In this document: one piece after another, positions 6,281 to 50,192 of the stretch | How the letters are laid out: every line of letters starts with the position of its first letter | How positions within the stretch are numbered: position 1 is the first letter of the stretch | Notes under the pieces: model-generated | What the model was told of the DNA's origin: nothing | Database searches by the model: none | Seen by the model: only the letters and a program-made list of their open reading frames with translations | From: an uncultured Nitrososphaerota archaeon | Lineage (GTDB): Archaea; Thermoproteota; Nitrososphaeria; Nitrososphaerales; Gagatemarchaeaceae | Length of the DNA: 64,000 bases | Direction: 5' to 3' | Assembly: GCA_963718895.1 (NCBI GenBank) | Contig: CAVRAG010000007.1 | Span: forward strand, 544,001-608,000 | Translations under genes and position numbers: made by a program

Positions 6281-7327
6281 TTAGCTATTTTGCTCGTTCG
6301 GCCTGATCGACAGAATCCAGGCGGGTCCTGAGGGCTCGACCGAGTAATCCACCTTCATGAACTGTTGCGCTACGTGGAGGCTCGTCCTGAGGTGTTCGGT
6401 GACCTCCGGCGTCACCAGCGAGGACGGGCCCTTGGCGAGGCAGAGGAGCGGGGCCAGCATGTCGGCTAGGTGTGGGTCGACGCAGGCACCGGTGGTGAAG
6501 AACTTTCCGAATCTCCACGCCGCCTCAGACCCCACTCTCAGAGCTGGTTTCCCCCGGGCCCCGATCGAGTCCGCTCCGACGAAGCACGAGTCGTCGACCG
6601 CGCTGACGAGAATCGAACTCCCCGGCGAGAGTGATTCCTCCAGACGGACGTCGACCGTATCCGCCGACAGGCCGAAGCGACCCAGCTCCGAGACCGCCGC
6701 AGACACCTGCTGCTCGGGCACCCGCTTCGGCAGCATGCCGGCTCTGCTGACCAGGGAGATGGGAGGGTCTTTCGTCCTTGTCGGCAGGTCCAGGGGCACG
6801 ACCCCGCGGCACGGTTCTATGCGAATCACCGCCCTGCCGCCTCCGCTCGGGTAGTACCCCCTCTTTGAGACCTCCAGCGAGAAGGTGATTCCGATCTGTC
6901 TCAGGCTCGGCGACAGCACGGTGCTGACGTAGTCCGAGGTCGGGCTCCAGGGAACATCCGTACCTCCGATGAGCTCGAGCTCGAGTCCGACCCCGGAGAG
7001 CGAGATGGCTGGGATCAGCGCCTGGAGTACGAGCGTGACGCTTGCCGCCGTCCCCATGTCGAGGGTGAGGGACCTGTTCTCGGGTCGGCCGGGTGTGAAG
7101 GTGAACTCGGTGGACCCTATCCCCCCGCCCTGGAGTGTCCCTCCGCAGACCTTGCGGAGTATCTCGAGTGTCGCGGCGTGCTGCGGCCTCAGGCCCGGCA
7201 CTCTTCGCCCGGCCCTGACCTTGGTCACCCGGATTGGTCTATCGAGGATTATCGAGAAGAACGTCGCCGTTCGAACAGTCTGTCCGCCGCCCTCGCCGAA
7301 CGAACCATCGATCTCAAGGACCGTCAA
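6281..7327 (-). CDS. rtcA: RNA 3'-terminal phosphate cyclase
   Basis: IDGSFGEGGGQ, GLRPQH, GGTDV, RGYYPSGGG and DPHLADM; likely TTG start at 7327. Confidence 0.93.
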   Translation of the reverse strand: MTVLEIDGSFGEGGGQTVRTATFFSIILDRPIRVTKVRAGRRVPGLRPQHAATLEILRKVCGGTLQGGGIGSTEFTFTPGRPENRSLTLDMGTAASVTLVLQALIPAISLSGVGLELELIGGTDVPWSPTSDYVSTVLSPSLRQIGITFSLEVSKRGYYPSGGGRAVIRIEPCRGVVPLDLPTRTKDPPISLVSRAGMLPKRVPEQQVSAAVSELGRFGLSADTVDVRLEESLSPGSSILVSAVDDSCFVGADSIGARGKPALRVGSEAAWRFGKFFTTGACVDPHLADMLAPLLCLAKGPSSLVTPEVTEHLRTSLHVAQQFMKVDYSVEPSGPAWILSIRPNEQNS

Positions 7328-7406
7328 CCCGCGCCTCCAAGAAAGACTGCCGGGTCCGGCCACCCCGAAAACCGCTTAAATAGTCAACGAAACTCGGTTT
7401 GAAGAG

Positions 7407-25018: not shown

Positions 25019-26476
25019 CTAACCCTTGATGTTCCCGATCGGCCTCAGGGCAGCGACCTTCAGCGAGATACCTGCCGAGTCCATGGTCTCGACGACTTCC
25101 GAGATGTCCTTGTAGGCCAGGCCCGCCTCCTCGGCGAGCCCGTCGTAGGTAGCTGCCTTCACGTAGATGCCCTTCTTCTCCATGCTCTTCTGGAGGGCCT
25201 CGCCGTTGACCTCCCTCCTCGCCGCGGTCCTGGACATCGTCCTCCCCGAGCCGTGCGCCGTAGACCCGAAGGTGTCGGTCATCGCCTTTGCCGTGCCGAG
25301 CAGCAGGTACGAGCCAGTCTCCATCGAGCCGCCTATGATGACGGGCTGGCCGATCTGACGGTAGGGAGCGGGGATGTCCTGGTGGCCGGGGCCGAAGCTC
25401 CTCGTCGCCCCCTTCCTGTGGACCACGAGCTCCCTGGTTGCCCCGTCGAGTGCGTGCTTCTCCACCTTGGCGATGTTGTGACAGACGTCGTAGATGATGT
25501 GCATGTCGAGCGCCTCGGGGTCTCGATGGAAGACCTTCTGGAACGCCTCCCTGACACGGTGGACTATGACCTGGCGGTTCGCGAAGGCCATGTTCGCCGC
25601 GCAGGCCATCGCGCCGTAGTAGTCCTGCCCCTCGTTCGATGAGAACGGCGCGCACGCCAGCTCCCTGTCCCTCACCTCAATGCCGTATCGCTTCATCGCG
25701 CCGTCGAAGACCCTGAGATAATCAGACCCAATCTGGTGTCCGAATCCTCTGGACCCGCAGTGGATCATGACGACGACCTGATCGTCGTGGACCAGCCCGA
25801 AGTTCTTCCCCATCTTTGCGTCGAAGAACCGGACCGGGTCGACGACCTGTATCTCCAGGTAGTGGTTGCCTGAGCCGAGCGTCCCGAGCTGCTGGATCCC
25901 ACGGCTCGATGCCTGCCTGCTGACCTTCGCGGGGTTCGAGCCCTTGATGAAGCCGCCCTCCTCCACCATCTTCGCGTCCTCTTCCCAGCCGTATCCGTTC
26001 TCGCCGCACCACTTGACCCCCCAGCGCATGACGTCCTCGAAGCTGGACTGGTTGACCTTCACGAAGCCCTTGACACCCACTCCGGTCGGGACGAGCTGGA
26101 AAAGGAGGTCTACAAGCTCCTTGACCTTAGGCTTGACCTCCTTTAGCCGTAGATTCGTCCTAATGAGCCGCATACCGCAATTTATGTCAAATCCGATTCC
26201 GCCAGGCGAAATAACTCCCATTTCGGGGTCGAAAGCCGCAACGCCGCCTATCGGGAACCCGTATCCCCAGTGGGCGTCAGCCATGGCGTAGGAGTACCGC
26301 TGGATCCCCGGAAGCGACGCTACGTTCGTGACCTGCTCGATTACTCCCTGGTCCATCCCCTCGAGCAGCTTCTTGGTCGCATAGATGCGCGCGGGCACCC
26401 TCATCCCTTCCTTGAAGCTCGTCGGGATCTCCCAGACGACCTCTGAGACCTGCTTGGTTTGTGGGGGCACTGGCAT
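25019..26476 (-). CDS. rtcB: tRNA-splicing ligase RtcB (intein-free)
   Basis: DAHWGYGFPIG, GFDINCG, GSGNHYLE, HCGSRG, HRKGAT and HGSGR. Confidence 0.97.
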   Translation of the reverse strand: MPVPPQTKQVSEVVWEIPTSFKEGMRVPARIYATKKLLEGMDQGVIEQVTNVASLPGIQRYSYAMADAHWGYGFPIGGVAAFDPEMGVISPGGIGFDINCGMRLIRTNLRLKEVKPKVKELVDLLFQLVPTGVGVKGFVKVNQSSFEDVMRWGVKWCGENGYGWEEDAKMVEEGGFIKGSNPAKVSRQASSRGIQQLGTLGSGNHYLEIQVVDPVRFFDAKMGKNFGLVHDDQVVVMIHCGSRGFGHQIGSDYLRVFDGAMKRYGIEVRDRELACAPFSSNEGQDYYGAMACAANMAFANRQVIVHRVREAFQKVFHRDPEALDMHIIYDVCHNIAKVEKHALDGATRELVVHRKGATRSFGPGHQDIPAPYRQIGQPVIIGGSMETGSYLLLGTAKAMTDTFGSTAHGSGRTMSRTAARREVNGEALQKSMEKKGIYVKAATYDGLAEEAGLAYKDISEVVETMDSAGISLKVAALRPIGNIKG

Positions 26477-26536: not shown

Positions 26537-26968
26537 TCAGATGTCCAGCACGACGGTGGCCTTCCACCAGTCATCCTGATGCTTCACTCCGAACATGTAC
26601 ATCGTCACGGCCTTGACGTCGTTCCTTAGCCGATGGCGCTCTCTGTCGATGGTCTCTCCTCTCATCTTGCAGACCAGGCTGCGCCCGTTCTGCGAGAGAT
26701 GCAGCTCGAAGGTCTTGAAGAGGAGCGAGTCCACGTCCTTGAGGACGATCAGTTCGGTAAGAAAGTCATAGAGGAGCCCGTCGATGTCACCGGTCTCAAT
26801 CTTCACCTCTCTCTGAATCGCAGGTCGCAGACTCCTCCGGTCCACCATCACGTCGGTGAGGGCCCTGGCGCAGGACTCGAAGAGCTCCTCCCTAGAGTCA
26901 CCCCTAGCGGCGAAGGCGACGTCTGCGAGTGCGACGTTCGGGAGGAAGCGGTAGGAGGGTCTCTTCAA
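26537..26968 (-). CDS. archease
   Basis: ADVAF..LFE..DVKAVTMY..VVLDI; directly upstream of rtcB. Confidence 0.92.
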   Translation of the reverse strand: MKRPSYRFLPNVALADVAFAARGDSREELFESCARALTDVMVDRRSLRPAIQREVKIETGDIDGLLYDFLTELIVLKDVDSLLFKTFELHLSQNGRSLVCKMRGETIDRERHRLRNDVKAVTMYMFGVKHQDDWWKATVVLDI

Positions 26969-32394: not shown

Positions 32395-32396
32395 CG

Positions 32397-32567
32397 CTAC
32401 TCTCCCCAGTCCTCTTCCTCGAGCTCGGCAGGACGGACGGAGAGCTGCCCGGACTCCTTGTCCTTGACCACTTCGTAGGAGGCTCCGCAGTCCTTGCAGG
32501 AGACGACCTCTCCCTGGATTGCGTCCGGCGGAATCGGCAGCGCGGCGTCACACTCTGGACAGTTCAT
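32397..32567 (-). CDS. lysW: amino-group carrier protein LysW, copy 2 (56 aa, missed by the ORF track)
   Basis: MNCPECDAALPIPPDAIQGEVVSCKDCGASYEV..AELEEEDWGE*. Confidence 0.95.
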   Translation of the reverse strand: MNCPECDAALPIPPDAIQGEVVSCKDCGASYEVVKDKESGQLSVRPAELEEEDWGE

Positions 32568-32630
32568 GGGTTCACCTTCAAACTTCGGCCTGTCGACGTT
32601 CCACGTTATTTAATGGTATTCGTCCGAAAA

Positions 32631-33044
32631 TCAGCGCAGCGTTCGCAGGATTATCGTCGTGTTTGTGTTGAGGACGCCGCTTATCCTGCGAATCTCCTCC
32701 ACCGACTTGTTCACCTCTGCGATATCGGAACCGCTGATGATCGCCGCGATGTCGAAGGCACCGGTCGTCTCGTAGATCGTCTCGACGCCCTTGACCGTCC
32801 CGATCCTCCTGCTGACCTCGGAGGTCGGGTTGGCGGGGCTGACCGAGACGTAGGTTATGGCGCTCGTCAGCTGGGGCTCGCTGACCTCGATTGTGAACCT
32901 CTTGATCGTCCCCCCCTTCACGAGGTTGGAGACCCTTCGTCTGACGGCGGCTTCCGAGAGCCCGACCTTGCCGGCTATCTCGACGAACGAGACCCGCGAG
33001 TCCCTCCGCAGGTGCTCCAGTATCCTCTCGTCGATCTTATCCAG
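32631..33044 (-). CDS. lysM: Lrp/AsnC regulator LysM
   Basis: LDKIDERILEHLRRDSRVSFVEIAGKVGLSEAAVRRRV helix-turn-helix lies upstream of the ORF-track start; the frame opens at CTG 33044. Confidence 0.88.
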   Translation of the reverse strand: MDKIDERILEHLRRDSRVSFVEIAGKVGLSEAAVRRRVSNLVKGGTIKRFTIEVSEPQLTSAITYVSVSPANPTSEVSRRIGTVKGVETIYETTGAFDIAAIISGSDIAEVNKSVEEIRRISGVLNTNTTIILRTLR

Positions 33045-34228
33045 GCGCCTTCATCTCCTCGGAGGAGAGGACGCTGTCGAGGACCTCCACAGACCGCCGG
33101 ATCTGGTGCTCTGAGATGACGAGCGGCGGCAGCAGCCTCACGACCGTCCGTCCGGAGTAGGTGAACAGGACGCGTTCCTTGAGCGCGTTCAGGAGGATGT
33201 TCTGGATGTCGACCCTCATCTCGAGGGCGAGCATCAGCCCCAGGCCCCTCGCCTCCCTCGCCATCTTGTGCTTTGCGACCAGCGCGTTCAGCTGTTCGAG
33301 GAAGAGCGTCCCCCGGGAGACCGCCTGTCCAGGCAGGTCGTTCTTGATGATGTAGTCCAGTGTGGCCGTGCCCGCGGCGCAGGAGAGGGGGTTCCCTCCA
33401 AAGGTCGAGGTCTGCTCACCCTTCTTCAGAGAGTGAAGGACTTCCTTCCTCGCAATGGTCGCTCCGATCGGCACCCCACCCGCGAGCCCCTTTGCTGAGA
33501 CTAGGACGTCGGGCACGACTCCCCAGTTCTCGACGGCCCAGAGCTTTCCGGTGCGTCCCAGCCCCGTCTGGACCTCGTCGGCGATCATGAGGATACCTCG
33601 TCTGTCGCAGAGCTCCCTGACACTCTTCAGGTAGTCCGGGGGCGGGAGTATGATTCCGCCTTCCCCCTGGATTGGCTCCAGCATCACCCCCGCCGTGTCG
33701 GAGTCAATCGCAGCCCTCTAGCTCGGCGAGGTTCCCGAACTCGACGTGCTTGAAGGAGGGGAGGAGCGGCTCGAAGGGGTCCTTGTACTTCTTGCTCCAA
33801 GTGGCCGAGAGCGCGCCCGCTGTCTTCCCGTGGAAGGCCCCCTTCATCGCTATCAGTCCCTTCTTTCCTGTGAACTTCTTGGCGAGCTTGATCGCGACCT
33901 CGTTGGCCTCGGCTCCGCTGTTGGAGAGGAATGCGGCGTCGAGACCCTTCGGGGTGCACGAGGTGAGCTTCTCGAGGAAGGTCGCGCGGACGTCGTTGTA
34001 GAGAGAGCTGTGGCAGGTTATCAGCCTCTCCGCCTGGCTCTTGACCGCCGCCACTACCTCAGGGTTGCAATGGCCGACGATCGCGACGCCGTACCCTCCC
34101 ATGCAGTCGATGTACAGGTTGCCGTGGTCGTCCCAGACCTCCGCCCCCGAGCCCCGCACTATCACGACCGGGAACTTCTGGTAGGTCTGAGGCCCGTGGA
34201 GTTCCTCCGCTTCCATTGTGTTCATCAT
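33037..34228 (-). CDS. lysJ: [LysW]-aminoadipate/glutamate semialdehyde transaminase, frameshift near 33715
   Basis: YIDCMGGYG, NSGAEANE, FHGKT, EPIQGEGG, DEVQTG and STFGGNP. Confidence 0.92.
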
Positions 34229-35041
34229 GAGCGGATCACAGTGCAACCTTCGTGAGCCATCGCGGCGGAGAGCGGTGACGGCCCGAAACCCGAGGCGATT
34301 ATCACCTCCCTGACCCCGCCCTCCATCGCCTCGATCCCCGCGAGGACCTTCTTCTGCATCCCGAACCCTATCTTTGGCAGGGAGGACCTCGCCTGCTCGA
34401 CGGTCAGGCTCTCCACCACCTTCCCGTCCAGCTTTAGACCCTTCACGTCGGTGAGGAAGAGGACGGCGTCCGCCCGCGCCCCGACGGCGAGGTACGCCGC
34501 CGCCCTGTCGGAGTCGACGTTGAGGGGCTCTGCCTCGTCGCCCATGGCGACGGGGGAGACCACGGGGATGAATCCCCCGATCCAGGAGCGCGTCGATGAC
34601 TGTCCCGTCGGCTGACTGCATCTTCCCCGTGTAGCCGCCGTCTATCACGACCTTCCTGCTGCGCTCGTCGACTATCAGGAGCTTCTTCTTCCGGGAGGCC
34701 CTGAGGACGCCTCCGTCCAGCCCGGAGAGCGAGACGGCCCTGATCCCGCTTCTGGCGAGCGTCTCCAGGAGCTTCTTGGCTATCATCCCGCACATGACCA
34801 TCGTGTAGATGTCCATCGTCTCCCTGTCGGTGTATCGGCTCTTGATCCCGTCCGGGGAGACCACGAACCGCTGTTCTTTGCCGAGTTTCGTGGCGATCTG
34901 CGTCACGGTGTCGCCCCCTCCGTGCACGAGGATGAGCTGGTTTGAGGAGCTCGTCTCCTTGATGTCGGCCAAGAGCGCGGCGGGGAACTCAGCCCCAACT
35001 ATGTCGCCGCCCAGCTTGATGACGATCCTCAATTCGCTCAC
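34225..35041 (-). CDS. lysZ: [LysW]-aminoadipate/glutamate kinase, frameshift near 34577
   Basis: IVIKLGG, LVHGGG, SRYTD, LNVDSDRAA and GFGMQKK. Confidence 0.92.
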
Positions 35042-36099
35042 ACCGGATGCAGCGGGGCGTCGTAGATTCCCTGCTTCTCGTCCAGGCCCAGCATGATGTT
35101 CATTACCTGGACCGCGTTGCCGGCCGCCCCCTTCAGGAGGTTGTCGATCGCGCCGATGGCCACTATCCTGTGGCCCCGCTCGTCGAGCTCGAATCCGACG
35201 TCGCAGAAGTTGGAGCCTATCACGACCTTCGGGTCCGGGAGCCTGAACGGGCCCTTCCTGTCCTTGACCATCCGGACGAACGGCTTGTCGCCGTACTGCG
35301 CCCTGTAGAGCTTCCAGAGTGTCGAGTTCTGTAGATCTCCTTCGTAGAAGACGTGGCACGTCGAGAGTATCCCCCTCACCATGTTCACCGCGTGGGCCGA
35401 CATCGATACGGTCACCCTGCTCTCGCCCAGCCAGGAGAGCTGCTGCTCTATCTCGCCCGTGTGCCTGTGTCCCGCTGGCTTGTACGGTCGGATGACGCCG
35501 TACCTCTCCGAAAAGTGGGTCGATAGAGAGGGCTTGCCGCCCGCGCCAGAGGAAGCGATCTTGGCGTCTACGACTACGTGGTCCCCGTCCACTCGGAAGT
35601 CCCTCTGCTTGAAGAGTGGGGCCATCGCCAGGATCGAGGTTATCGCCATGCACCCGGGCGAGGCAGCGAGGCTCGTCTTCGAGATCTCGTCCCTGTTGAG
35701 TTCGGGGATCGCGTAGACGAACTTGGCGAGCAGCTCGGGGTTGGGGTGCTTGAATCCGTACCACACCTCGTAGTCGGCCGCGTTCTTGAGTCTGAAGTCG
35801 GCACTGAGGTCGACAATCTTCAGGCCCGATGCAGCTAGCTGCGAGATCAGGGAGAGAGACTGGCCGTGGGGCAACGCCGTCAGCACCACGTCGGCCATTC
35901 CCGTGATCTTCGAGACGTCGTTGTCGATGAACTGCATCTCAGTCATCCCCCTCAGGTTCGGGTGGACCCTGAACAGGTACTCGCCTGCGTTCTTCCTGGA
36001 GGTCGCGAAGGCGAGGTCGACCTTCCCGTGCTTCAGGAGTAGTCTGACGAGCTCGCCCCCGGCGTATCCGGAGGCGCCCACAACTCCAACGCGCACCAT
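35038..36099 (-). CDS. lysY: [LysW]-aminoadipyl/glutamyl-phosphate reductase
   Basis: GASGYAGGEL, DLSADFRL, PGC, SSGAG and DNLLKGAAG. Confidence 0.95.
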   Translation of the reverse strand: MVRVGVVGASGYAGGELVRLLLKHGKVDLAFATSRKNAGEYLFRVHPNLRGMTEMQFIDNDVSKITGMADVVLTALPHGQSLSLISQLAASGLKIVDLSADFRLKNAADYEVWYGFKHPNPELLAKFVYAIPELNRDEISKTSLAASPGCMAITSILAMAPLFKQRDFRVDGDHVVVDAKIASSGAGGKPSLSTHFSERYGVIRPYKPAGHRHTGEIEQQLSWLGESRVTVSMSAHAVNMVRGILSTCHVFYEGDLQNSTLWKLYRAQYGDKPFVRMVKDRKGPFRLPDPKVVIGSNFCDVGFELDERGHRIVAIGAIDNLLKGAAGNAVQVMNIMLGLDEKQGIYDAPLHPV

Positions 36100-36954
36100 C
36101 TATCGCTTCGCGCTCCGGATCACAAAGTCTATCATCTTCTTGGCGATCTTAGTCTTGGAAGCCGCCTGCGCCCCCTTGAACTCGACGGTGTTATTCACCT
36201 CGTGGACCACGTACCCGTTCTTCGACTCCATGACGTCGACGCCGAGTATGCCTCCCCCGACTGCGTGCGCCGCCTTGTGGATGATCTCTGTGAGCTCCTT
36301 GTCGGCCTTGAAGGAGGTGGTGGTCGCGCCCCGAGCTACGTTTGTCCTCCACTCGTTATCCGAGGCGTTCCTGTAGACCGTCGCGATTATCTCTTCCCCG
36401 GCGACTATGGCGCGTATGTCGCGCGGAGGTCGTTCCACGTACTCCTGGAGGTAGTACATGTGCTCTATGGGGTTCGGTATCGACTCCCTCAGCTCGACTA
36501 TGGTGTCGAGGATCTGGGGGTCCCTGGCGATACTGATCATCCTCCCCCAGCTCCCGACGAAAGGCTTCATCACGACCGGATAGCCGACGAGGTTCGCGGT
36601 CTGGTCGACCGACTCGGACGAGAGCGCGACGAAGGTCCTCGGAGTCGGGACCCCTGCCTTGGCCAGCACCATCGAGCTGATCAGTTTGTTCCCGCAGACG
36701 TCCGAGACGTTGGAGTTGTTTATCACGTAGGCGCCGAAGTTCTCCATGATTCTGGTCAGGAAGAGCGACCGGTAGTAGCTTATGCACCGCTGGAGCACGA
36801 CGTCCCCGAACCGGTTCTTTGCGTCCCGGTCGGTCAGCTCGAATGAGAGCAGTCTGCCGTCGACCAGCTCGGTGGTGTGGCCCGACTTCTTGGCTTCATG
36901 CGCCAGCCACTTCTCCTCGCCTCGTATCCTGTCGAAGACTATTGTGATCTTCAA
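36100..36954 (-). CDS. argX: second LysX/ArgX ATP-grasp ligase (probably ArgX by position)
   Basis: KPFVGSWGRM, WRTNVARG and EVNNTVEFKG; follows argG-argH-lysW. Confidence 0.75.
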   Translation of the reverse strand: MKITIVFDRIRGEEKWLAHEAKKSGHTTELVDGRLLSFELTDRDAKNRFGDVVLQRCISYYRSLFLTRIMENFGAYVINNSNVSDVCGNKLISSMVLAKAGVPTPRTFVALSSESVDQTANLVGYPVVMKPFVGSWGRMISIARDPQILDTIVELRESIPNPIEHMYYLQEYVERPPRDIRAIVAGEEIIATVYRNASDNEWRTNVARGATTTSFKADKELTEIIHKAAHAVGGGILGVDVMESKNGYVVHEVNNTVEFKGAQAASKTKIAKKMIDFVIRSAKR

Positions 36955-36955
36955 G

Positions 36956-37129
36956 CTACTCGCCCCAGTCCTCTTCGGCGACCTCGGCAGGCTTTAGCGT
37001 GACCTTGCCGCTCCCGAGCGAGGCGACCTCGTACTCGGCGCTGCACTCCTTGCACTGGACTATCTCGCCGACGATGGCGTCCTCTGGTATGGTTATGTCC
37101 GCGTCGCATTCTTCGCACTTTGCTATCAT
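36956..37129 (-). CDS. lysW: amino-group carrier protein LysW/ArgW, copy 1 (57 aa, missed by the ORF track)
   Basis: MIAKCEECDADITIPEDAIVGEIVQCKECSAEYEV..AEVAEEDWGE*. Confidence 0.95.
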   Translation of the reverse strand: MIAKCEECDADITIPEDAIVGEIVQCKECSAEYEVASLGSGKVTLKPAEVAEEDWGE

Positions 37130-38613
37130 CTTATCACCTCACCTTCGATCTTGCCTACCTGGGCTCTGAGTCGGCCGTCGGCCTCCTTCAGCGAACTCCG
37201 CGCGCGGGATATCCACGAAAGATTCTGCCTGAGGAAGCGGGAGTCCTTGAGGAGGAGACGTGGCACTGAGTGTGGGTTGGCCCCACCCGCTGTGCGCGTC
37301 AATTCAAGGGTTTTGAGTGCATCGAGCACGTTTCGAAGCTGGTCTTTATCAATCTTTAGCGGCCTCCCGGTCACGCGGGAGGAGATAGGGGACATCTCCT
37401 TCAGCGCAGCCTCCGCGAGGGTCGAGCCGCGCTCCAGGGCGGTCCTGACAAGCTCCCCGACGATCGCGTGGGCTTGGCGGAACGGGACGCCGTGCATCCT
37501 GACGAGGTGGTTTGCGAGCTCTGTCGCGGTCGACATGTCCCCGCTGACCGCGCTACGCAGCCTTTCGGGGTCGAATTTCAACGAAGAGAGCATCTCGGCC
37601 GTGAGCCGGGCCGAGGAGATCGTATCGTCTGTGGCCCTCCAGAGGTGGGGCGTGACCTCCTGCAGGTCCAGGTTGTAGGAGTTCGGCAGAGCCTTTGTGA
37701 TGGCGAAGGAGGCAGTCAGTTCACCCAGGACTGACCCGCACTTGGCCCTGACCGTCTCCGCGACTACTGGATTCTTCTTCTGAGGCATGATGCTGCTGGT
37801 CGCGCTGAACTCGTCGGCGACCTCCGCGAAGCCGAACTCCGAGGTGCTCCAGAGGATAACCTCCTCGGCCATCCGGCTCAGGTTCACCATCGCCATGGCT
37901 GCGACGGAGACGCTCTCAAGCGCGAAATCCCGGGAAGAGACCGCGTCCATGGCGTTCTCCGCCAGTCCCCCGAACCCCAGGAGCGAGGAGACGTATGCTC
38001 TGTCAATCCGGATCGACGTGCCCGCTAGGGCCGCGGCGCCCATGGGCGAGAGGTTCACCCGACCGTACGCCTCCTCGACCCGCTCAACGTCGCGCTGGAC
38101 CGCTTCGAAGTACCCTTGGAGGTGATGAGCGACCGTTACGGGCTGGGCGTGCTGGAGGTGAGTGTATCCCGGCATAAGAAGCCTGCCGTATATGCGGATG
38201 AGGTGGATGAGCGACCCCTGGACTCTGCAGAGGGCGGACAGAAGATCGAGGAGGCGATCCCGCGTCTCCATCCTGAGCGCCGTGGCCACCTGGTCGTTCC
38301 TGCTCTTGCCGAGGTTTAGGTAGCCCGCCTTATCCATCCCTATCGTCTTGATAGCTTCCTGTTCTATCATGTGATGTACATCCTCAGTGGTCTTGTCAAG
38401 TTCGAGATGGGATGGGAGTCCGCTGAGGAACCTCAATGACGCCGAGGCGACCACTGGGCTGACTTCCTTCGACCTGTACAGAGCGAGCATATGAGCCATG
38501 TTTATCGACGCGACGTGCTTCGTGAGGGGGGTGTCGAAGCCTATCGAGGAGATGAAGTCATTCGCTCTCTTGCTCGATCGCCTAACTCGACTTCCTCTCA
38601 GTATGTTTGGCAT
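37126..38613 (-). CDS. argH: argininosuccinate lyase
   Basis: GKSRNDQV, PGYTHLQHAQP and SSIMPQKKNP. Confidence 0.96.
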   Translation of the reverse strand: MPNILRGSRVRRSSKRANDFISSIGFDTPLTKHVASINMAHMLALYRSKEVSPVVASASLRFLSGLPSHLELDKTTEDVHHMIEQEAIKTIGMDKAGYLNLGKSRNDQVATALRMETRDRLLDLLSALCRVQGSLIHLIRIYGRLLMPGYTHLQHAQPVTVAHHLQGYFEAVQRDVERVEEAYGRVNLSPMGAAALAGTSIRIDRAYVSSLLGFGGLAENAMDAVSSRDFALESVSVAAMAMVNLSRMAEEVILWSTSEFGFAEVADEFSATSSIMPQKKNPVVAETVRAKCGSVLGELTASFAITKALPNSYNLDLQEVTPHLWRATDDTISSARLTAEMLSSLKFDPERLRSAVSGDMSTATELANHLVRMHGVPFRQAHAIVGELVRTALERGSTLAEAALKEMSPISSRVTGRPLKIDKDQLRNVLDALKTLELTRTAGGANPHSVPRLLLKDSRFLRQNLSWISRARSSLKEADGRLRAQVGKIEGEVIR

Positions 38614-39817
38614 TTCTTCCTCTTTTGACTCCGGAAGACATCTTCGCGGCAATCCTAGATTGCAGACCCCAGAGCTCGATGAATCCGACAGCGGACGATT
38701 GGTCGAACGTGGACCCCTTCTGGTACGTTGCTTGACGGACCTTGTAGAGCGAGTAGGGTGAGGTCCGGCCTACTACGCGCAGTCCTCCCTTGTAGAGCTT
38801 CAGACGCACGCTCCCGGTGACTCTCCTCTGCGTTGTGTCTACGAAGCTGTCCAGCGCGGAACGAAGGGGGTCCATCCACAGGCCGGAGTAGACCAGCCAG
38901 GACCACTCCCTCTCGACGCCGACCTTGAACGCCAGCTCGTGCCTAGTGAGAACCAACTGCTCGAGGTCCCGGTGCGCCTCTATTATCGATACGGCGGCGG
39001 GCGCCTCGTAGACCTCGCGAGACTTTATCCCTACGAGCCGGTCCTCGATGTGGTCAATGATGCCGACTCCGTGCTTCCCCGCGAATGCGTTCACTTGACG
39101 AATCAGCGATAGACCGTCCTTTTCCACGCCGTTCAGCGAACGCGGTACGCCCTCGGCGAAGCCTATCTCTAGGTAGCCCGGAGTGTCCGGAGCGTCCTTC
39201 GGTAGCGTGACCCATTCGAACGCGCTTGCCGGAGGCTCGGCGTCCGGATCCTCCAGCGGCCCGCTCTCTATCGCCCGCCCCCAGAGGTTCTGGTCAATGC
39301 TGAAGATGGAGTTGGAGGGCTTCACCAATATGTTGTGCTTCTTCGCGTAGACCAGCTCTTGGTCCCTGCTCATGTTCCACTCCCTCACTGGCGCGATGAC
39401 ACGCAGAGATGGGTTGAGAGCCCGCACCGTGACGTCGAGCCTCACCTGGTCGTTGCCCTTCCCGGTGCATCCGTGCGACACGGCCGTGGCGCCCTCCTTC
39501 TCCGCGACCTCGACGAGCTTTGTCGCGATTAGCGGCCGTCCAAGGGCGGTAGCCAGGGGGTACTTCCCCTCGTACATCCCATTGGCACGGACCGAAGGCA
39601 GGACGTAGTTCTTGATGAACTCCTCCTTGACATCGATTTCGTAGTGCTTTACCGCGCCGACCGCCCTGGACCTCGCAGCGATTTCCTTGAAGTCCTCCTT
39701 CTGACCCAAGTCGAGCGTTAGCGTGATGACCTCGGCTCCGTACTTCTCTTGGAGCCAGCTGATGATTACGGAGGTGTCCAGGCCACCCGAGTAGGCGAGC
39801 ACTATCTTTTCTTTCAA
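38582..39817 (-). CDS. argG: argininosuccinate synthase
   Basis: LAYSGGLDTS, HGCTGKGNDQVR and GIKSREVYE; TTG start at 39817. Confidence 0.97.
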   Translation of the reverse strand: MKEKIVLAYSGGLDTSVIISWLQEKYGAEVITLTLDLGQKEDFKEIAARSRAVGAVKHYEIDVKEEFIKNYVLPSVRANGMYEGKYPLATALGRPLIATKLVEVAEKEGATAVSHGCTGKGNDQVRLDVTVRALNPSLRVIAPVREWNMSRDQELVYAKKHNILVKPSNSIFSIDQNLWGRAIESGPLEDPDAEPPASAFEWVTLPKDAPDTPGYLEIGFAEGVPRSLNGVEKDGLSLIRQVNAFAGKHGVGIIDHIEDRLVGIKSREVYEAPAAVSIIEAHRDLEQLVLTRHELAFKVGVEREWSWLVYSGLWMDPLRSALDSFVDTTQRRVTGSVRLKLYKGGLRVVGRTSPYSLYKVRQATYQKGSTFDQSSAVGFIELWGLQSRIAAKMSSGVKRGRNAKHTERKSS

Positions 39818-39890
39818 GCTTTTTTTGACCCTCGGTGAAATGTTTTTATAGATTTTGGCCATAAAGGACCCAAAATAGGGTGCTCTTGTT

Positions 39891-40616
39891 ACGAAATCGG
39901 TCACGCCGGGCGGGATAATCGCGGCTGTTAGAGACGAGATTGACTACGACCTCTCGCTGCAGGACGCTCTGGCAAGGGACTATGCAAACATCAGTGCGGT
40001 CTCCAGGATGATGCAGCCCCGGATTTCGGAGAAGCTGGGAAGAGAAGTGAACATCGAGAGCATCATCACCTCGATGAAACGCCTTCGGGGCGTCTACACG
40101 TTCGCGTCGGAGGAGATCAGGGAGGTGATAGGAGAGAGCGTGGTCAACGTGAGAACGAACGTCTCCAAGATCTCGGTCGAGAAGACGCGGAAGACCCTCG
40201 AGGCCGTGAGCGGCATGCTGGCCAGCCATCAGCACGATTTCCTGCATGTCTCCGAGAGCATCTCGTCGATTACGCTGATCTTCGACCAGAAGCTCCACAA
40301 GCGGATTAGGGACAGGCTCCCCGAATCGGTCATCCTGGAGGAGGGGGACGACTACGCGGCCATCATCGTCCAGAGCCCCATCAAGATCAGGACGACGCCC
40401 GGATGCCTGATCAACTTCTACAACCAGATAGCACGGAGGCACGTCAATATCGAGGACACGGTCAGCTGCCACACCGACACCATCATAGTCGTGAAGATGA
40501 AGGAGGTCGGAAAGGCCTTCACCGCGCTGACAGACCTGATATCGGAGGAGAGGAAGTGGCTCGAGTCGGGCGAGGCGGCGCGCCGCCAAGAGGCGCGAAT
40601 TCGTCAAAGTGTTTAA
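39891..40616 (+). CDS. ACT-domain regulator of amino-acid metabolism (archaeal)
   Basis: AVRDEIDYDLSLQDALARDYANISAVSR precedes the first ATG (40008); C-terminal TPGC..NIEDTVSCHTD; sits between the arg operon and carAB; start codon unclear. Confidence 0.75.
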   Translation, partial: TKSVTPGGIIAAVRDEIDYDLSLQDALARDYANISAVSRMMQPRISEKLGREVNIESIITSMKRLRGVYTFASEEIREVIGESVVNVRTNVSKISVEKTRKTLEAVSGMLASHQHDFLHVSESISSITLIFDQKLHKRIRDRLPESVILEEGDDYAAIIVQSPIKIRTTPGCLINFYNQIARRHVNIEDTVSCHTDTIIVVKMKEVGKAFTALTDLISEERKWLESGEAARRQEARIRQSV

Positions 40617-40655: not shown

Positions 40656-41825
40656 ATGGAAAAAACTGAGGGGAGCAACCCGGCCGTCCTTCTTCTGGAG
40701 GATGGTTCGCTCTTCCTCGGAAAGGGCTTTGGTGCGGAGACGACGGCAGTCGCCGAGGTCGTGTTCACGACGGGTATGGTGGGTTATCCCGAATCAATGA
40801 CGGACCCGTCCTATGCTGGCCAGGTTCTGACGTTCACGTTCCCCCTCATAGGGAACTATGGGGTCGCGAGCATGCAGGACCTTGATGTGATGGGGCTGCC
40901 GAGGCAGTTTGAATCGGAGTCCATCAAGGTTAGCGGAATCGTGGTGCAGGAGAACTGCGAGCGCCCGAGCCACTGGGACTCCAGGAGCACGCTGTCGGAC
41001 TGGATGCGCCGCGAAGGCGTGCCTGGCATCAGCGGGGTGGACACGAGGGCGCTGGTCACGAAGCTCAGGGAGAGGGGAGTTATGATGGGCATCCTGGCCA
41101 ACGGGGTGGAACTCTCGTCCAAGAGCGAGCTGCTGAAGCTTCTCAAGCGGTCCACTAAGTACGGTTCTATCGACTTCGTGAGGAGGGTCTCCCCGAAGAA
41201 GGCGAAGGTCTACGGAGACTCCGAGAAGTCCGTGGTGCTACTCGACTGCGGGACGAAGCTCAGCATAATACGCAACCTTCTCACCAGGGGCTACAGCGTC
41301 GTGAGGGCGCCTTTCGACTACTCCTACTCTGACGTCATGAGCCACGATCCGGTCGGGGTCGTCGTTAGCAACGGTCCCGGAGATCCCGTGCTCTGCGGGG
41401 CGACGGTCGCGACGACGGCGAGACTCATCGAGTCCGACGTGCCCACCCTTGGTATCTGTCTCGGGCAGCAGCTCGTCGCCATCTCGCAGGGAGCGACCAC
41501 CTTCAAGCTGAAGTATGGTCACAGAGGGCAGAACAAGCCTATCGTCGACCTGACGTCGGGCAGAGGATTCGTCGCGAGCGAGAACCACGGGTACTCGGTC
41601 GACGGCGCGAGTCTCGGGGGAACCGACCTGAAGCCGTGGTTCGTCAACGCGGACGATAAGAGCATCGAGGGGCTCATCCACTCGAAGAGGTCCTGCATCT
41701 CGGTCCAGTTCCATCCCGAGGCATCACCGGGGCCCTACGACGCCCAGTTCGTCTTCGACAGGTTTGCCTCGCTCATAGAGGGCAGGAAGATGGTAGGTGA
41801 GAAAGTTCGAACCATGAGAACGTGA
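40656..41825 (+). CDS. carA: carbamoyl-phosphate synthase small subunit
   Basis: FTTGMVGYPE, SNGPGDP, GICLG, GHRGQN and QFHPE. Confidence 0.97.
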   Translation: MEKTEGSNPAVLLLEDGSLFLGKGFGAETTAVAEVVFTTGMVGYPESMTDPSYAGQVLTFTFPLIGNYGVASMQDLDVMGLPRQFESESIKVSGIVVQENCERPSHWDSRSTLSDWMRREGVPGISGVDTRALVTKLRERGVMMGILANGVELSSKSELLKLLKRSTKYGSIDFVRRVSPKKAKVYGDSEKSVVLLDCGTKLSIIRNLLTRGYSVVRAPFDYSYSDVMSHDPVGVVVSNGPGDPVLCGATVATTARLIESDVPTLGICLGQQLVAISQGATTFKLKYGHRGQNKPIVDLTSGRGFVASENHGYSVDGASLGGTDLKPWFVNADDKSIEGLIHSKRSCISVQFHPEASPGPYDAQFVFDRFASLIEGRKMVGEKVRTMRT

Positions 41826-44800
41826 AGAAAGCGATAGTCCTGGGAAGCGGGGCAATAAAGATCGGAGAAGCCGGCGAGAGCCGCTAAAGCGGCCGCCAAT
41901 TCGACTACTCCGGAAGTCAGTGCCTCAAGGCCCTGCGGGAAGAAGGCGTCAGTTCCCTTCTGGTCAACCCGAACATCGCTACCATCCAGACCGACTCGAG
42001 GATGGCCGACAAGATCTACTTCCTCCCTGTGAACCCGGACTTCGTCTCGGCGGTGATCGAGAAGGAGCGGCCCGACGCTATCATGCTCGGGTTCGGAGGT
42101 CAGACCGCCCTGAACTGCGGGGTGGGCCTGGCGAGGAGGGGGACGCTCGAGAAGTATGGTCTGAAGGTCCTCGGTACTCCGATCATCGGAATCGAGATAA
42201 CCGAAGACAGGGAGCTATTCAAGGAGGCAATGCAGGACGTCGGAATCTCCGTCCCCAGAAGCAAGCCGGCGTACTCTCTCGAGGACGCTCGGCGGATAGT
42301 CAAGGAGATAGGATACCCCGTCATCCTTAGGGTCGCGTACACCCTGGGAGGAAGAGGCGGTGGCGTCGCGCGGAACGACAGGGAGCTCTCGGAGATCGTC
42401 CAGAGGGGGCTCAACCTCAGCATCGCGCACCAGGTCCTGATCGAGGAGTACATCGGGCACTGGAAGCAGATCGAGTACGAGGTAATGCGTGACAGGAAGG
42501 AGAACAGCATGGTCGTCTGCAACATGGAGAACGTCCTGAGCATGAGGGTCCACACCGGCGACAACATCGTGGTCGCGCCCTCGCAGACGATAACCAACAG
42601 GGAGTACCACATGCTTCGCTCCCTCTCGCTCAAGGCCGCGGCGAGGTGCGGCATCCTGGGCGAGTGCAACATGCAGTTCGCTCTCGAGCCCGGCTCGGAG
42701 CGGTACAACGCGATCGAGATCAACGCCCGGCTCTCGAGGTCCTCGGCGCTCGCGTCAAAGGCCACAGGTTATCCCATTGCGTACATAGCAGCGAAGCTCT
42801 GTCTCGGATACTCACTGGAGGAGCTGAAGAACAAGGTCACCGGAGTGACCACCGCGCTCTTCGAGCCCTCGCTCGACTACGTCGTCGTGAAGATGCCGCG
42901 GTGGGACACCAAGAAGTTCGAGGGAGCCTCGAGGAACATCGGGACGGCGATGAAGTCCATCGGGGAGGTGATGGCGATAGGGAGGAACTTCGAGGAGGCC
43001 CTCCAGAAGGCCGCCAGGATGCTCAACATCAGGTACGACGGCGCCATAAGGAGGTTCGTGGAGACGGACGACCTCGCGGTCCTCAGGGAGAGGCTGAAGA
43101 ATCCCACCGACCAGATAATCTTCGACGTCGTGGAGGCGCTGATGGTGGGCCTCCCCGAAGACGAGGTGAGCAGGCTCAGCGTGATCGACCCCTGGTTCGT
43201 GAGCAAGCTCAAGAACATCGTCGAGATGTACGGTCGCATCACCAAGAGCGGGAAGGAGGGGATTGAGAGGGACCCGACGCTCGTCCGGGAGGCGAAGACC
43301 CTCGGCTTCTCCGACAAACAGATAGCCGCCGCCGTCGGGATGGACGAGGACCACGCGAGGTCGCTGAGGGAGAGGATGGAGATTAGGCCCTGCACGAAGG
43401 TGATAGACACGCTCGCCGCAGAGTGGCCGGCCCGCACCAACTACCTATACATGACGTTCAACGGGACCGAGGACGAGGCCAAGCCGACCAGCGCCAGGAA
43501 GGTCGTGGTCCTGGGGGCAGGCCCCTACAGGATCGGGAGCTCCGTCGAGTTCGACTGGGGTACCATGAACATGGCGTGGGCGCTGAAGGCCAACGGGGTC
43601 GAGGAGGTCGTGGTCGTCAACTGCAACCCCGAGACCGTCTCGACCGACTTCGACATGAGCGACAGGCTCTACTTCGAGGAACTGACCGTCGAGAGGCTGC
43701 TCACGATATACGCCAGGGAGAAGCCGATGGGCCTCGTCCTCTGCGTCGGGGGGCAGATACCGAACGACCTGGCCCTGGAGCTCGACCAGAACGGGGTCAG
43801 CATCCTGGGGACTACCGCGGAGTCCATCGAGCGGGCGGAGGACAGGGAGAGATTCAGCTTCCTGCTCGACAAGCTCGAGATCCCCCAGCCCAAGTGGGGG
43901 AGCTTCAGGTCGACCAAGCAGGCCAGAGACTTCTGCGACGAGGTCGGATACCCCGTGATAGTCCGGCCCTCGCACGTCCTGAGCGGGTCGGCAATGAGGG
44001 TGATCTGGGACAGCAGCGAGCTCGACACGTTCCTCGCGAAGGCCGTCGAGGTCAACCCCAACTATCCGGTCACGATAAGCAAGTTCATCGAGGATGCCAA
44101 GGAGGTCGAGGTGGACGGGATCTCGGACGGGGAGACGACCGTAATAGGCGCCATAATGGAACACGTGGAGAAGGCAGGGGTCCATTCCGGGGACGCCATA
44201 ATGACTATCCCGACCATAACCGTGAGCCCGGTCGCCAAGCAGAAGATGCGTGACTACAGCCGCTCCATCGCTCGAGAGCTCGGGGCGAAGGGGCCGTTCA
44301 ACATCCAGTACCTCGTCATAGGGGACGACGTGCAGGTCATCGAGTGCAACCTGAGGGCCTCCCGCTCGATGCCCTTCGTCTCGAAGGCCACCGGGATGAA
44401 CCTGATCGAGCTCGTCGCCCCGGTCCTCCTTGGAGGCAAGCTCACAGGCATTCAGGACGCGCCGGAGCCGAAGGGGTTCGCCGTGAAGGCGCCCCAGTTC
44501 TCTTTCATGCAGATGGAGGGTGCCGAGCCTACGGTCGGTGTCGAGATGCGGTCGACGGGCGAGGTCGCGTGCTTCGGTGACACTCTGCCCGAGGCCATGA
44601 GCAGGGCCTTGATCGCGTCGGGCCTCAGGATACCACAGAAGGGGGAGATCGGTATCGTGCTCGCGGACGAGAAGTCGGACATGAAGAGGATGAGGTCGCT
44701 CGTGGCGGGGTTCAGGGCGGCGGGCATAGACCTCGTGGCGACTCAGTCGCTCGCCAACGCCCTCGGACAGAGCCTCGCCAGGGCATCGACTACCGACGAG

Positions 44801-44992
44801 ATGGCAGAGATGCTGACGAGCGGCAAGGCGTCGTTCGTCATCTCGCTGAGCACAAATCTCAACAGGATGAGGAAGGACCTGTTCAAGGTCAGGAGGAAGG
44901 CCGTCGAGCTCCAGGTCCCGTTCCTGACGACGCTGGAGGAGGGCGAGGCGATCCTCATGTGCGTACGGTCCCCCCTGAAGAGCCTCATCTAG
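41822..44992 (+). CDS. carB: carbamoyl-phosphate synthase large subunit, interrupted by a 21-nt insertion
   Basis: GTG at 41822 overlaps the carA stop (GTGA). KKAIVLGSGAIKIGEAGE-[insert]-FDYSGSQCLKAL..NPNIATIQTD is in frame with ORF 42002-44992. Confidence 0.95.
41879..41899 (+). other. candidate bulge-helix-bulge/loop mRNA intron (AGCCGCTAAAGCGGCCGCCAA)
   Basis: GGCG/CGCC 4-bp helix, AGA 3-nt bulge and GCCGC-TAAA-GCGGC inner hairpin; removal restores GEAGEFDYSG and deletes the in-frame TAA. Confidence 0.8.
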
Positions 44993-46254
44993 GACGGACG
45001 TGCGATAGGAAGTCCTTCTTCGGGACGAGCGTCTCAGTCCCGTCCTCGAGGTCCTTGAGCAGGAAGTTCCCCGAGTCGAGTTCCTTCCGTCCGACGAGGA
45101 GCACCCACCTGAAGCCAGTGGAGCTTGCGTCCTCCATCTGCTTCCTCAGGCTCTTGCCGCGGGGACCAACCTCGCTCCTCATTCCCTCTGCCCTAAGTCT
45201 GGCCAGGGCCTCGAGCGCGGTCTCCATCAGCGCAGGCTCAGTGTAGGCCACGTACACAGACACCGTCGGCCTGGCCTGCGGGGCCAGCGAGAGGGCTATC
45301 CTCTCGACACCCCCGGCCGCGCCGGTGGCCGAGAGCTCAGGTCTTCCGAAGAGCTTCGGCAGGACGTCGTAGCGCCCTCCTCCGCACAGGGACCCGAGGT
45401 CCGGGCGTGCCCCGTCCTTGACCTCGAACACTATCGCTGTGTAGTAGTCCAGGCCTCGGACGATGCTCAGGTTGTACTGGACGTTCGAGACTCCCCTCTG
45501 CCTGAGCGCGTCCCTGAGCTCGCCGAGACCCGTCGCGGACTCCAGTCCAGCCTCTTCCAGCCTGGTGAGGACCTTGATCGGGATGGCCCACGGTCCTCCC
45601 GAACTCGAGGAGGTCTTTCATCTCTCCCCGCCCGACCCCTTTGGCCTCGTACTCCCTGACGAGCTCCTCCTCGGTCTTCTTTCCGACCTTGTCGAGGGCC
45701 CTCATCATCTCGCTGGCCTTCTCCTCCGAGGTCACCTTGAGCGTCTTCCTGATGTACTCTTCGACGACCCTCCGGTCGCCCACGTGGAGGATGACCTCGC
45801 TCAGGCCCAACCTCTTGAAGAGGTTGTAGGAGAGGTCCATCACCTCGGCGTCGGAGTCTATCCTGGGATCTCCGAATATCTCGACGTCCCACTGGTAGAA
45901 CCAGCGGTATCTTGCGTGCTGCGGCTCGTCGTACCTCCAGACCCCGCCGTAGGAGGCGAGCTTGATCGGGGGCCTGAGCTCCTTCTTCCCAGCCACATAC
46001 CGGGTCATCCCGACTGTCAGGTCGAACCTGAGCCCGATGTCCCTCTCGCCCTTGTCCTTGAAGTGGTAGATCTGCTCATCGACCTGGGACCCGCTCTTGG
46101 CCCTCAGGACAGAGAGCGTCTCGAGGGGGGCCGGCTCCATCGACCTGAAGTTGTAGGCCCTGACGAGCTCGTCGAAGGCCGTCCTTATCCGGGTGTGGAG
46201 ATCGTACTCGTCCGGATCGATGTCCCGGATGCCCCGCGGCAGGGAGAGGTCCAT
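44985..46254 (-). CDS. hisS: histidyl-tRNA synthetase, frameshift near 45578
   Basis: LPRGIRD, LRFDLT, WRYDEPQ, RGLDYY and CGGGRYD; C-terminal anticodon-binding domain. Confidence 0.95.
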
Positions 46255-48807: not shown

Positions 48808-50192
48808 TTAAGGGTATCCTGGTTGCCAGGTTACTGTGTCCGATCCCGAGGAATAGGTACCCGCTAGGACCCACTGCGTGGTGGTTCCCTTGGTTTGCAC
48901 TTCGTAGATGTCGTAGCCGACCGGGGCTTCGTCTCCTGATGCCTGGAGGGAGGTCCACCCTGATGCACCGAAGTAGTGGTCGGCGATGTTCGCGAAGACC
49001 TTCTGGATCGCCTGCCCGTTGTTCTGGCCAGCCGCCAGAACTGAGAGCGCGATCACCCACGCCGCGTCGTATGCATTGATTGCGTATGAGACGGGTGATT
49101 CGTGTGCGGTGGCGTTGAACTCTTGGGTGAAGGCGTTGGTCGCTGCCGTCGCTGCCGGAGATTCGCCGATGGTGCTCACCAGCTTCACCTGGGCGGCGAT
49201 TGGCGCGGCCGCGCTTGTGGAGTTGGAGAAGTCGGTGTTCTGTGACTCACCGTCCGACCCGTACCAGGTAGCAGACAGCAGGCCCGGGAAGCAGGCTCTT
49301 CGCCTGAACGAGCATGTTGCCGACCTCCTGGAAGCCGATCGCGACGATGGCTACGCTGCTTGCGCCGTACTTGCCCACCGCAGACTGATACTCGCTCTGC
49401 ATGGTGGTCAAGGTAGGTGTGAAGTCAGTAGCGATGGTGCTGTACTGGACCTCTGCTTCCGCGTGCCCGCCAAGTGCAGCGAACCTGACGATCGTTGCGT
49501 TCGCCAGGCCGGTGCCGTACACGCTCTGCTGGTTGACGACGACTATGTCCTTGATGTTCTGGCTCACGAGTGCGCGGGCGATTGCGAAGCTCTGTGCGGC
49601 GTCGTTGGGCACGAACCTGAAGAGGTAGTCGTTGGGGATGGCGAGGCTGATCGCCGTCGAAGACGGGCTAATCAGCACGATGTGGTCGGTGTCAGCAGTA
49701 CTGAAGGACGTTGCTTGCTTCGGAGCTGGATAGAGGCCCGACCACGGCCTGTACCCCGTCCGAGGACAGGGTCTGGAGGTCGGTGAGGGCGGTCGCAGGG
49801 CTGCTGCCGGTGTCCTCATAGATTGCCGCGAACTTCAGGTTCGTGTAACCGGTGTTCTGCAGGTAGGTGTTGACGTCGTTCACGGCCAAGCCCACCGCTA
49901 TCTTGATCGGGAGACCGATTCCGGAGAGCGGGCCCGAGAGGTCCGTTAGGACCCCTATGTTGACAGTTCCGGAGAGGGCCGAACCTCCGCTTCCCGTGAC
50001 CGTGTTCGTCACGGTGTTGGTTACGGTCGCTCCCGCCCCGACTGTGGTGGTCGAGTAGGAGGTGGTTGTGAACGTGCTGGTGGTACCTGATGGGGTGATT
50101 GCGTAGGTGACTCCTGCGCCTACGATTAGTCCTACAACGAGGAGTGCGATTGCTATTCCTGTAGATACAGCTTTCCGTCTATTGGTTTTCGT
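48808..50192 (-). CDS. ABC substrate-binding protein (LivJ/K-like), frameshifts at about 49698 and 49292
   Basis: RRKAVSTGIAIALLVVGLIVGAG signal, Thr-rich linker, IGVLTDLSG, VGPLSS, SPSSTA, LFRFVPND and AYDA. Confidence 0.85.

Follow-up and report, generated by a model that had tools for sequence, protein, structure and literature searches.

A candidate relaxed bulge-helix-bulge intron in the carB pre-mRNA of Nitrososphaerota archaea

How can a gene for a central metabolic enzyme yield a full-length product when an in-frame stop codon stands inside a conserved motif near its start? The question is raised by carB, the gene for the large subunit of carbamoyl-phosphate synthase (CPS), in a 64-kb stretch of contig CAVRAG010000007.1 from an uncultured Nitrososphaerota archaeon (64,000 nucleotides (nt), G+C ~61%; hereafter the window). 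The GTG start of carB (41822) overlaps the TGA stop of carA (41823-25) as GTGA, and translation of 41822-44992 gives one frame of 1057 positions whose sole internal stop is a TAA at 41885-87. This frame reads ...IKIGEAGE / SR*SGRQ / FDYSGSQ..., the insert falling precisely on the boundary of the Glu and Phe codons in the conserved GEAGE-FDYSG motif. In a search of solved structures, the N-terminal 293 CarB residues, with the stop read as X, matched human CPS1 (5dot_A, E 9.8e-119) and E. coli CarB (1bxr_A, E 3.9e-115). Aligned to 5dot_A, the insert's 7 codons form a clean insertion between GQAGE and FDYSGSQ, a position at which solved CPS structures have zero residues. An initial annotation of the window had described a 21-nt insertion with an in-frame TAA at this point and had proposed that the tRNA-splicing machinery removes it from the mRNA. 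The insertion itself is confirmed by both the translation and the 5dot_A alignment, and its coordinates proved correct on re-reading: those of the start codon, of the stop and of the elements GGCG, AGA, GCCGC-TAAA-GCGGC and CGCC (Table 1), as well as those of GGAG (41864-67), AAT (41898-41900) and CTCC (41908-11). Translation of unspliced carB stops after 21 codons, and the first start codon past the insert's stop is ATG 42002, which in our open reading frame (ORF) calling opens a 996-amino-acid frame.

On comparative sequence evidence, we consider it highly likely that 41879-41899 is a relaxed bulge-helix-bulge (BHB) intron of the carB pre-mRNA, cut by the tRNA-splicing endonuclease EndA and ligated by RtcB; the interpretation given in the initial annotation is thus supported. 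Exon and intron would fold together, with the GGCG of exon 1 and the CGCC of the intron forming a G/C-rich 4-bp helix. A 3-nt bulge and a stable hairpin of the intron would adjoin the 5' strand of this helix; next to its 3' strand would come a bulge of 3 to 5 nt and then a helix between the exons. EndA would cut both bulges, after G41878 and after A41899, and RtcB, with the help of archease, would ligate the exons. The Glu codon would then meet the Phe codon, restoring the GEAGE-FDYSG motif of the large subunit.

The comparison that carries this reading used the exon-2 protein as query against genome contigs and kept the best 80 of 533 carB relatives. Together with the window these make 81 sources, of which 73 (the window and 72 loci) cover the insertion site; the other eight loci begin downstream of it. 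Closest among the best 80 of 533 is a metagenome-assembled genome (MAG) of Candidatus Gagatemarchaeum stordalenia, at 95% identity, and the other loci in this set come from Nitrososphaerota-type MAGs (Nitrososphaera, Nitrosotenuis, Nitrosocaldus and others) and one from Nezhaarchaeales. An insert is present at the identical bond, between a GAR Glu codon and a TTY Phe codon, in 64/73 covering sources, in Gagatemarchaeaceae-like, Nitrosotenuis-type and Nitrososphaera-type genomes; the remaining nine (L027, L030, L031, L034, L040, L041, L052, L058 and L061) have none. As the initial annotation had anticipated for related genomes, the inserts share their site and vary in length, from 20 to 31 nt (21 nt in 27 of 64), and the 64 carriers hold 46 distinct intron sequences. 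Insert length leaves a remainder of 0, 1 or 2 on division by three in 35, 13 and 16 carriers. None of the 64 inserts is therefore translatable, since 29 shift the frame and all 35 others hold an in-frame stop. Same-site inserts with 46 distinct sequences and variable lengths, none of them translatable, exclude an assembly error, simple read-through and a fixed frameshift. Decay of carB is likewise excluded, because the rest of the gene is intact, with protein identity of 49-95% across the 80 loci. The longest introns, 31 nt, are those of two Nitrososphaeraceae-type loci (L033 and L074), whose exon-2 frames, at 1146 and 1157 codons counted from the first start, also exceed those of the other loci by ~130 codons.

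The placement of the insert agrees with how EndA is understood to choose its sites. By the canonical rule the enzyme cuts after the second bulge nucleotide, so that each strand of the central helix ends two nucleotides short of a cut. Applied to the window, the rule predicts cuts after G41878 and A41899 that would join the Glu codon to the Phe codon, and in 64/64 carriers the predicted cuts yield the same frame-restoring Glu-Phe junction. The G-E-F-D junction forecast from the window alone is exactly the arrangement found in all nine intron-less genes (GAG followed by TTY) and in the solved CPS proteins. In the available part of PMC4090602, the recognised motif is described as a helix of 4 bp between two 3-nt bulges, in which the splice sites lie, with an exon strand pairing with the intron.

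We then asked how well the proposed structure is kept across the family. A MAFFT alignment (A1; 64 rows, 54 distinct, 75 columns) that took in each insert with 24 nt of exon 1 and 20 nt of exon 2 was scored against the structure drawn in the initial annotation, with 500 shuffles not corrected for relatedness. With a 3-nt 3' bulge, 95.9% of cells formed standard pairs; the shuffle mean was 90.0% and 0/500 shuffles reached the observed value. Sliding the helix partners along A1 left only 18-53% of cells paired, and an alternative with a C:G closure and a 5-nt bulge gave 92.2%. The inner hairpin is 95.6% paired, with compensatory double changes in 4/5 pairs (75 cells vs ~26 expected). The central helix has three near-invariant G-C pairs and a fourth that is GC in 20, GU in 18 and G.A in 16 of 54 distinct sequences. 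All seven pairs of the exon helix are 100% paired, and vary only by C-to-U or A-to-G transitions that keep wobble pairing. The 5' bulge is A-R-A (A-A-U in two) and is unpaired in 51/54 minimum-free-energy (MFE) folds, and an A:U or G:U pair closes a 3-nt 3' bulge in 44/54 distinct sequences. The outer, central and inner helices are thus kept in relatives by compensatory and wobble changes. RNAalifold, run without the structure being supplied, recovered both the exon and the inner helix as well as the GCG/CGC core and the 3-nt 5' bulge; unconstrained MFE folding of each distinct sequence gave the whole motif in 43/54, the central core in 50/54, the inner helix in 53/54 and the exon helix in 54/54. 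A covariance model built from A1 scored the 64 insert sites at 68-89 bits and the nine intron-less sites at 12-29 bits, and found no second copy of the motif in the window.

Several observations weigh against an EndA-spliced intron, or at least against one of the textbook kind. The motif departs from a strict hBHBh'. Its central helix measures 4 bp in 38/54 distinct sequences, and in the 16/54 with G.A as fourth pair it is 3 bp plus a mismatch. A closing pair at the 3' bulge is missing in 10/54, the window included, where a C.U mismatch shared by its clade replaces it and the MFE fold places the 3' splice site in a 5-nt bulge, AAUUC, closed by C41872:G41903. RNAalifold, moreover, pairs the first 5'-strand G of the central helix with an exon pyrimidine (64/64), giving a 3-bp helix and a 5-nt bulge. 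The 3' site, with the strong exon helix beginning some bases farther out, agrees better with the relaxed hBH or BHL forms than with the strict hBHBh' form, and the wording "bulge or loop" chosen for it in the initial annotation was apt. Further, the shuffle controls ignore relatedness, and no EndA gene is among the Pfam matches of the 130 ORFs in the 64-kb window. The fold of the window sequence taken singly is only modestly unusual: unconstrained MFE folding of 41855-41920 returns the helices as proposed, with an energy of -22 kcal/mol, z = -1.96 and 7/200 shuffles as stable. Finally, the exon pairs could partly be conserved for coding alone, although the contrast in codon freezing described below argues otherwise. 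The significance of the insert comes from the exact placement of the motif, the exact restoration of the frame, and conservation and covariation in 63 other genomes, rather than from the single-sequence fold.

Exon 1 bears the marks of both a protein and an RNA constraint. In 63/64 carriers its last 16 codons preserve the peptide tail LGSGA(I/L)K(I/V)GEAGE, and its variable sites fall at codon positions 1, 2 and 3 in the numbers 8, 7 and 15. Peptide conservation and codon-position bias together indicate that ribosomes translate exon 1 as a portion of CarB. Its two motif Gly codons are all but fixed over the 55 distinct exon-1 tails (GGA in 55/55, GGC in 54/55), whereas a Gly codon seven codons upstream, outside the motif, is free to vary (GGC 17, GGT 11, GGA 18, GGG 8, and one GCA from a frameshifted locus, L018); none of the intron-less genes (0/9) has GGA at the first motif Gly. 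The sole exception to the conserved peptide is likewise L018, which has a one-base insertion in exon 1 typical of long-read error. This locus (CAVXVM010000195.1, with the site at 2956-3020) carries an Acidobacteriaceae MAG label, yet its carB is 94% identical to the window gene and contains the same 21-nt intron; the contig is probably mis-binned.

We next considered how the intron came to be distributed among these genomes. For a FastTree tree, 59 exon-2 proteins with a length of 900 amino acids or more were used and the Nezhaarchaeales row served as root; the tree leaves out the rows with an early stop or contig end (L012, L014, L018, L019, L020, L036, L037, L046, L048, L049, L067 and L068) as well as the intron-less L027 and L061. 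The tree requires at least three intron changes, and the simplest history, in which the intron would have been gained once and lost precisely at least twice, is tentative because the order of gain and loss depends on a gene tree with a single outgroup. The first loss would lie in a Nitrosocaldus-type clade (L030, L031, L034 and L040), and the second in L041 and L052, which are nested in intron-bearing Nitrososphaera as sister to L025, a locus with a 30-nt intron. Judged from these sequences, the carB intron is old, and two precise natural losses show that it is dispensable.

Could ribosomes, rather than a nuclease, cope with the insert? In phage T4 gene 60, an essential gene, a short untranslated gap contains a stop codon and a hairpin, and in carB too the stop follows shortly after a Gly-Glu region that could serve for take-off and lies within a stable hairpin, which could then act as a signal for hopping or read-through. 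The likeness is superficial: carB lacks matching take-off and landing codons, and the gap is variable in length. The GAR take-off codon is never matched by the triplet before Phe, which among the 64 sequences is CAA, TAA, AAA, CAG, TAT, AAG, CAT or TAG. The gap varies over 20-31 nt and all three residues modulo three, read-through is impossible for the 29 frame-shifting inserts, and bypassing leaves unexplained the central helix, the bulges at a fixed distance from the junction and the frozen exon codons. We regard such recoding as very improbable.

About equally improbable is that the insert stays in the message and CarB is made from an internal downstream start, the hairpin being a terminator, attenuator or protein-binding element that follows a leader peptide. 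The insert does come after a short 21-codon frame coupled to carA, and ORF callers do offer the frame from ATG 42002. However, all sources conserve the protein sequence that directly follows the insert (FDYSGSQCLKAL...), and no start codon precedes it, so a protein from a downstream start cannot explain the conservation of the exon-2 N-terminus. In 58/64 carriers, 11-61 codons of exon 2 go by before a start becomes possible, and the place of this start is not conserved. In addition, exon 1 is under coding selection, as its codon positions and peptide attest, and the segment that would be lost is part of the fold in solved CPS structures. The frame from ATG 42002 and the late starts in relatives, as called here, do fit another claim of the initial annotation, namely that annotators would call a truncated carB.

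If the insert leaves the RNA, as the favoured BHB reading holds, a different endonuclease and ligase pair or a ribozyme-like activity might still do the work in place of EndA and RtcB. The deviation of the 3' site from a strict BHB and the lack of EndA among the window ORFs would suit such an excision, to which we assign a slighter chance still than to recoding or an internal start. A hairpin insert of 20-31 nt is far below the size of group I or II introns, and Rfam matched no family at gathering thresholds anywhere in the window; a self-splicing group I or II intron or a curated RNA family is ruled out on both grounds. The geometry, by contrast, is one that EndA recognises. According to the available text of PMC5829648, no EndA types except (alpha-beta)2 and epsilon2 cut the relaxed hBH, HBh' and BHL motifs, and (alpha-beta)2 enzymes are conserved in Thaumarchaeota. 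The insert lengths also lie inside the range of 11-129 nt that the part of PMC4090602 at hand gives for archaeal tRNA introns. Genes for RtcB and archease are, furthermore, present in the window.

The reading that survives least well, an assembly or sequencing error or a carB pseudogene, can point to real-looking single-base frame breaks elsewhere in the window and to similar errors in related long-read MAGs such as exon 1 of L018, and is refuted, since 63 independent assemblies have the insert at this bond, the inserts come in 46 distinct sequences, the structure covaries and carB is otherwise intact.

One of those breaks affects a class-III aminotransferase gene (ArgD/LysJ type), interrupted at ~33705-33715 (-) between ORFs 33040-33687 and 33707-35764. 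It reads as one extra G in a run of G, and a one-base shift restores ...ELE-AAIDSDTAGVMLEPIQGEGG; we rejected it as an intron candidate, since it is an ordinary single-base indel. The carB insert indeed differs in kind from the single-base indels of the window, as had been remarked from the outset. Four further genes lie in pieces in different frames, those for histidyl-tRNA synthetase (44985-46254, -), a major facilitator superfamily (MFS) transporter (21370-22922, -), a TnpB/Cas12f-like protein (3612-5384, -) and a periplasmic binding protein (49247-49819, -), and these could be long-read indel errors or pseudogenes.

The intron also contains a NotI site (GCGGCCGC, 41889-41896), which could hint at an engineered linker; the site is natural, because its bases build the hairpin and central helix in independent MAGs. 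A scan of the window for the bulge, 4-bp helix and hairpin pattern gave 1301 (+) and 1257 (-) raw matches, against 996-1082 in 5 shuffles; a coding-context filter left 70 and 101 and recovered the carB site. Such patterns arise often by chance in DNA this rich in G+C; the scan is thus non-specific and offers no evidence for or against further introns in the window.

Table 1 Features of the carAB locus, of the proposed intron fold and of genes related to RNA ligation in the window
Feature	Position	Strand	Remarks
carA (CPS small chain)	40656..41825	+	ORF; Pfam CPSase_sm_chain 1.4e-49, GATase 2.8e-41
carB exon 1	41822..41878	+	19 codons, GTG start to Glu codon GAG
carB intron (putative)	41879..41899	+	21 nt; in-frame TAA 41885-87; covariance model 89.2 bits
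carB exon 2	41900..44992	+	1030 codons + stop; begins at Phe of FDYSGSQ; Pfam CPSase_L_D2 2.7e-104 (window ORF scan)
Outer (exon) helix, 5' strand, CGGAG + AG	41863..41870	+	MFE fold; seven pairs, 100% paired in 54 distinct sequences
Central helix, 5' strand, GGCG, in exon 1	41873..41876	+	MFE fold, family alignment
5' splice-site bulge AGA	41877..41879	+	Predicted cut 41878/41879; unpaired in 51/54 MFE folds
Inner hairpin GCCGC, loop TAAA, GCGGC	41880..41893	+	MFE fold, covariation
Central helix, 3' strand, CGCC, in intron	41894..41897	+	MFE fold, family alignment
3' splice-site bulge/loop, AAUUC here (AAU in canonical reading)	41898..41902	+	Predicted cut 41899/41900
Outer (exon) helix, 3' strand, CU + CUCCG	41905..41912	+	MFE fold, family alignment, RNAalifold
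RtcB RNA ligase gene	25019..26476	-	Pfam RtcB 4.1e-169, profile 1-426 of 426; intact; presumed exon joiner
Archease gene (RtcB activator)	26537..26968	-	Pfam Archease 2.1e-37; directly upstream of rtcB, same strand
RNA 3'-terminal phosphate cyclase (RtcA) gene	6281..7363	-	Pfam scan

The archease-rtcB pair, the ligation half of the tRNA-splicing pathway, lies in the same 64-kb window as the carB intron; the role of archease in activating RtcB is described in the available part of PMC4090602. For tRNA genes, ARAGORN found none in 56 of 80 loci scanned, and made a single call in the window, a 92-nt tRNA-Ser(CGA) at 30778-30869 (+) with an odd anticodon position. This call lies within an M20 peptidase ORF (30452-31540, -) with a full Pfam match, Rfam has no tRNA there, and it is probably a false positive. 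With no tRNA in the scanned loci and a doubtful call in the window, there is no tRNA intron of the same lineage to compare. Upstream of carAB on the opposite strand is an arginine/lysine (LysW-type) biosynthesis cluster (31513-39904, -) with two RimK/LysX-like ligases, a semialdehyde dehydrogenase, an amino-acid kinase, an aminotransferase, an M20 peptidase, argininosuccinate synthase and argininosuccinate lyase, which places the intron-bearing carB in an arginine-pathway neighbourhood. Farther along, an MCM helicase ORF of 1573 amino acids (54076-58797, +) contains two intein-splicing stretches and a LAGLIDADG domain, so that protein splicing and putative RNA splicing occur in one window.

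The closest known parallel is the pre-mRNA intron of cbf5, which encodes a pseudouridine synthase and was reportedly described by Watanabe in 2002 and Yoshinari in 2006. Like that intron, the carB insert is short, sits in a protein-coding gene, has a BHB-like (often relaxed) structure formed by exon and intron, and would have had a single gain followed by losses; the cbf5 intron is cut by a hetero-oligomeric EndA, and by analogy we propose the same class of mechanism for carB. It is not the same intron by gene or position. Its host is a metabolic rather than an RNA-modification enzyme, its lineage is Nitrososphaerota, and its splicing is so far a prediction. The cbf5 intron is found in Desulfurococcales and Sulfolobales, with one gain and secondary losses (Yokobori 2009, PMC2738675), and the table of that paper, as far as available, lists no cbf5 intron for Cenarchaeum or Nitrosopumilus.

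With archaeal pre-tRNA introns (hBHBh', hBH, HBh' and BHL), as described in the available parts of PMC4090602 and PMC5829648, the carB intron shares the 4-bp helix between 5' exon and intron, the 3-nt 5' bulge, the inner helix, the usual length and, presumably, the enzymes. Unlike them it lies in an ORF without a tRNA body, and its outer helix consists of codons of a conserved peptide motif, so that protein and RNA constraints overlap. An mRNA of Haloferax volcanii, HVO_1309, has a BHB intron in its 5' untranslated region (UTR) that is a splicing endonuclease substrate (Schwarz 2020, PMC7714728, in the part available). In contrast to that leader intron, the one in carB splits the coding frame, and its removal would be needed for any full-length protein. 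Outside the archaea, HAC1 and XBP1 undergo unconventional splicing, with IRE1 cutting and a tRNA ligase or RtcB joining. The analogy would be a short mRNA intron for which splicing by protein enzymes decides the functional product and ligation is of the tRNA type (PMC4090602, available part); unlike HAC1/XBP1, with IRE1, another motif and a proven stress switch, carB has a switch function only by conjecture.

Such a function would make the carB intron a kinetic gate: full-length synthase would come only from transcripts processed by EndA and RtcB, so that arginine and pyrimidine synthesis would depend on the cell's capacity for tRNA processing or on its growth state. The carB start, coupled to carA, is 57 nt away from the intron, whose recognition helix consists of codons, so a ribosome entering carB would melt the motif and halt at the intron stop. 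Any regulatory use of the intron is speculative, and we hold the gate itself to be doubtful. A gate of this kind, if true, would give archaea their equivalent of HAC1/XBP1-type control and be conserved throughout the ammonia-oxidising ones.

The carB intron has probably gone unreported so far. We found no report of it in the full-text literature, a coverage outside which lie supplements and most subscription journals, so that an earlier report is possible. The available parts of PMC12397907 (a 2025 endonuclease paper), a 2026 review, a 2026 preprint and the Caldiarchaeum genome paper make no mention of it, and for protein-coding introns the reference list of PMC12397907 cites only cbf5 papers. 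In the available text of PMC7714728 (2020), cbf5 is the only mRNA intron reported besides those in tRNA and rRNA, to which the paper adds its 5'-UTR case from Haloferax, and the only archaeal coding-region intron of BHB type reported more than 20 years after its discovery. A second coding-region case, if true, would make mRNA splicing by the tRNA machinery more than a crenarchaeal curiosity, the more so as the host is a central metabolic gene and the phylum across which the intron is conserved counts globally abundant ammonia oxidisers among its members. Standard gene callers will give carB as N-terminally truncated or broken in carrier genomes, and such calls can cause arginine or pyrimidine auxotrophy to be wrongly inferred in metabolic reconstructions. 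With its many sequence variants and two natural losses, the family would offer a clean natural system for learning the substrate rules of a broad-specificity endonuclease, and would also suit the study of a possible coupling between splicing and translation.

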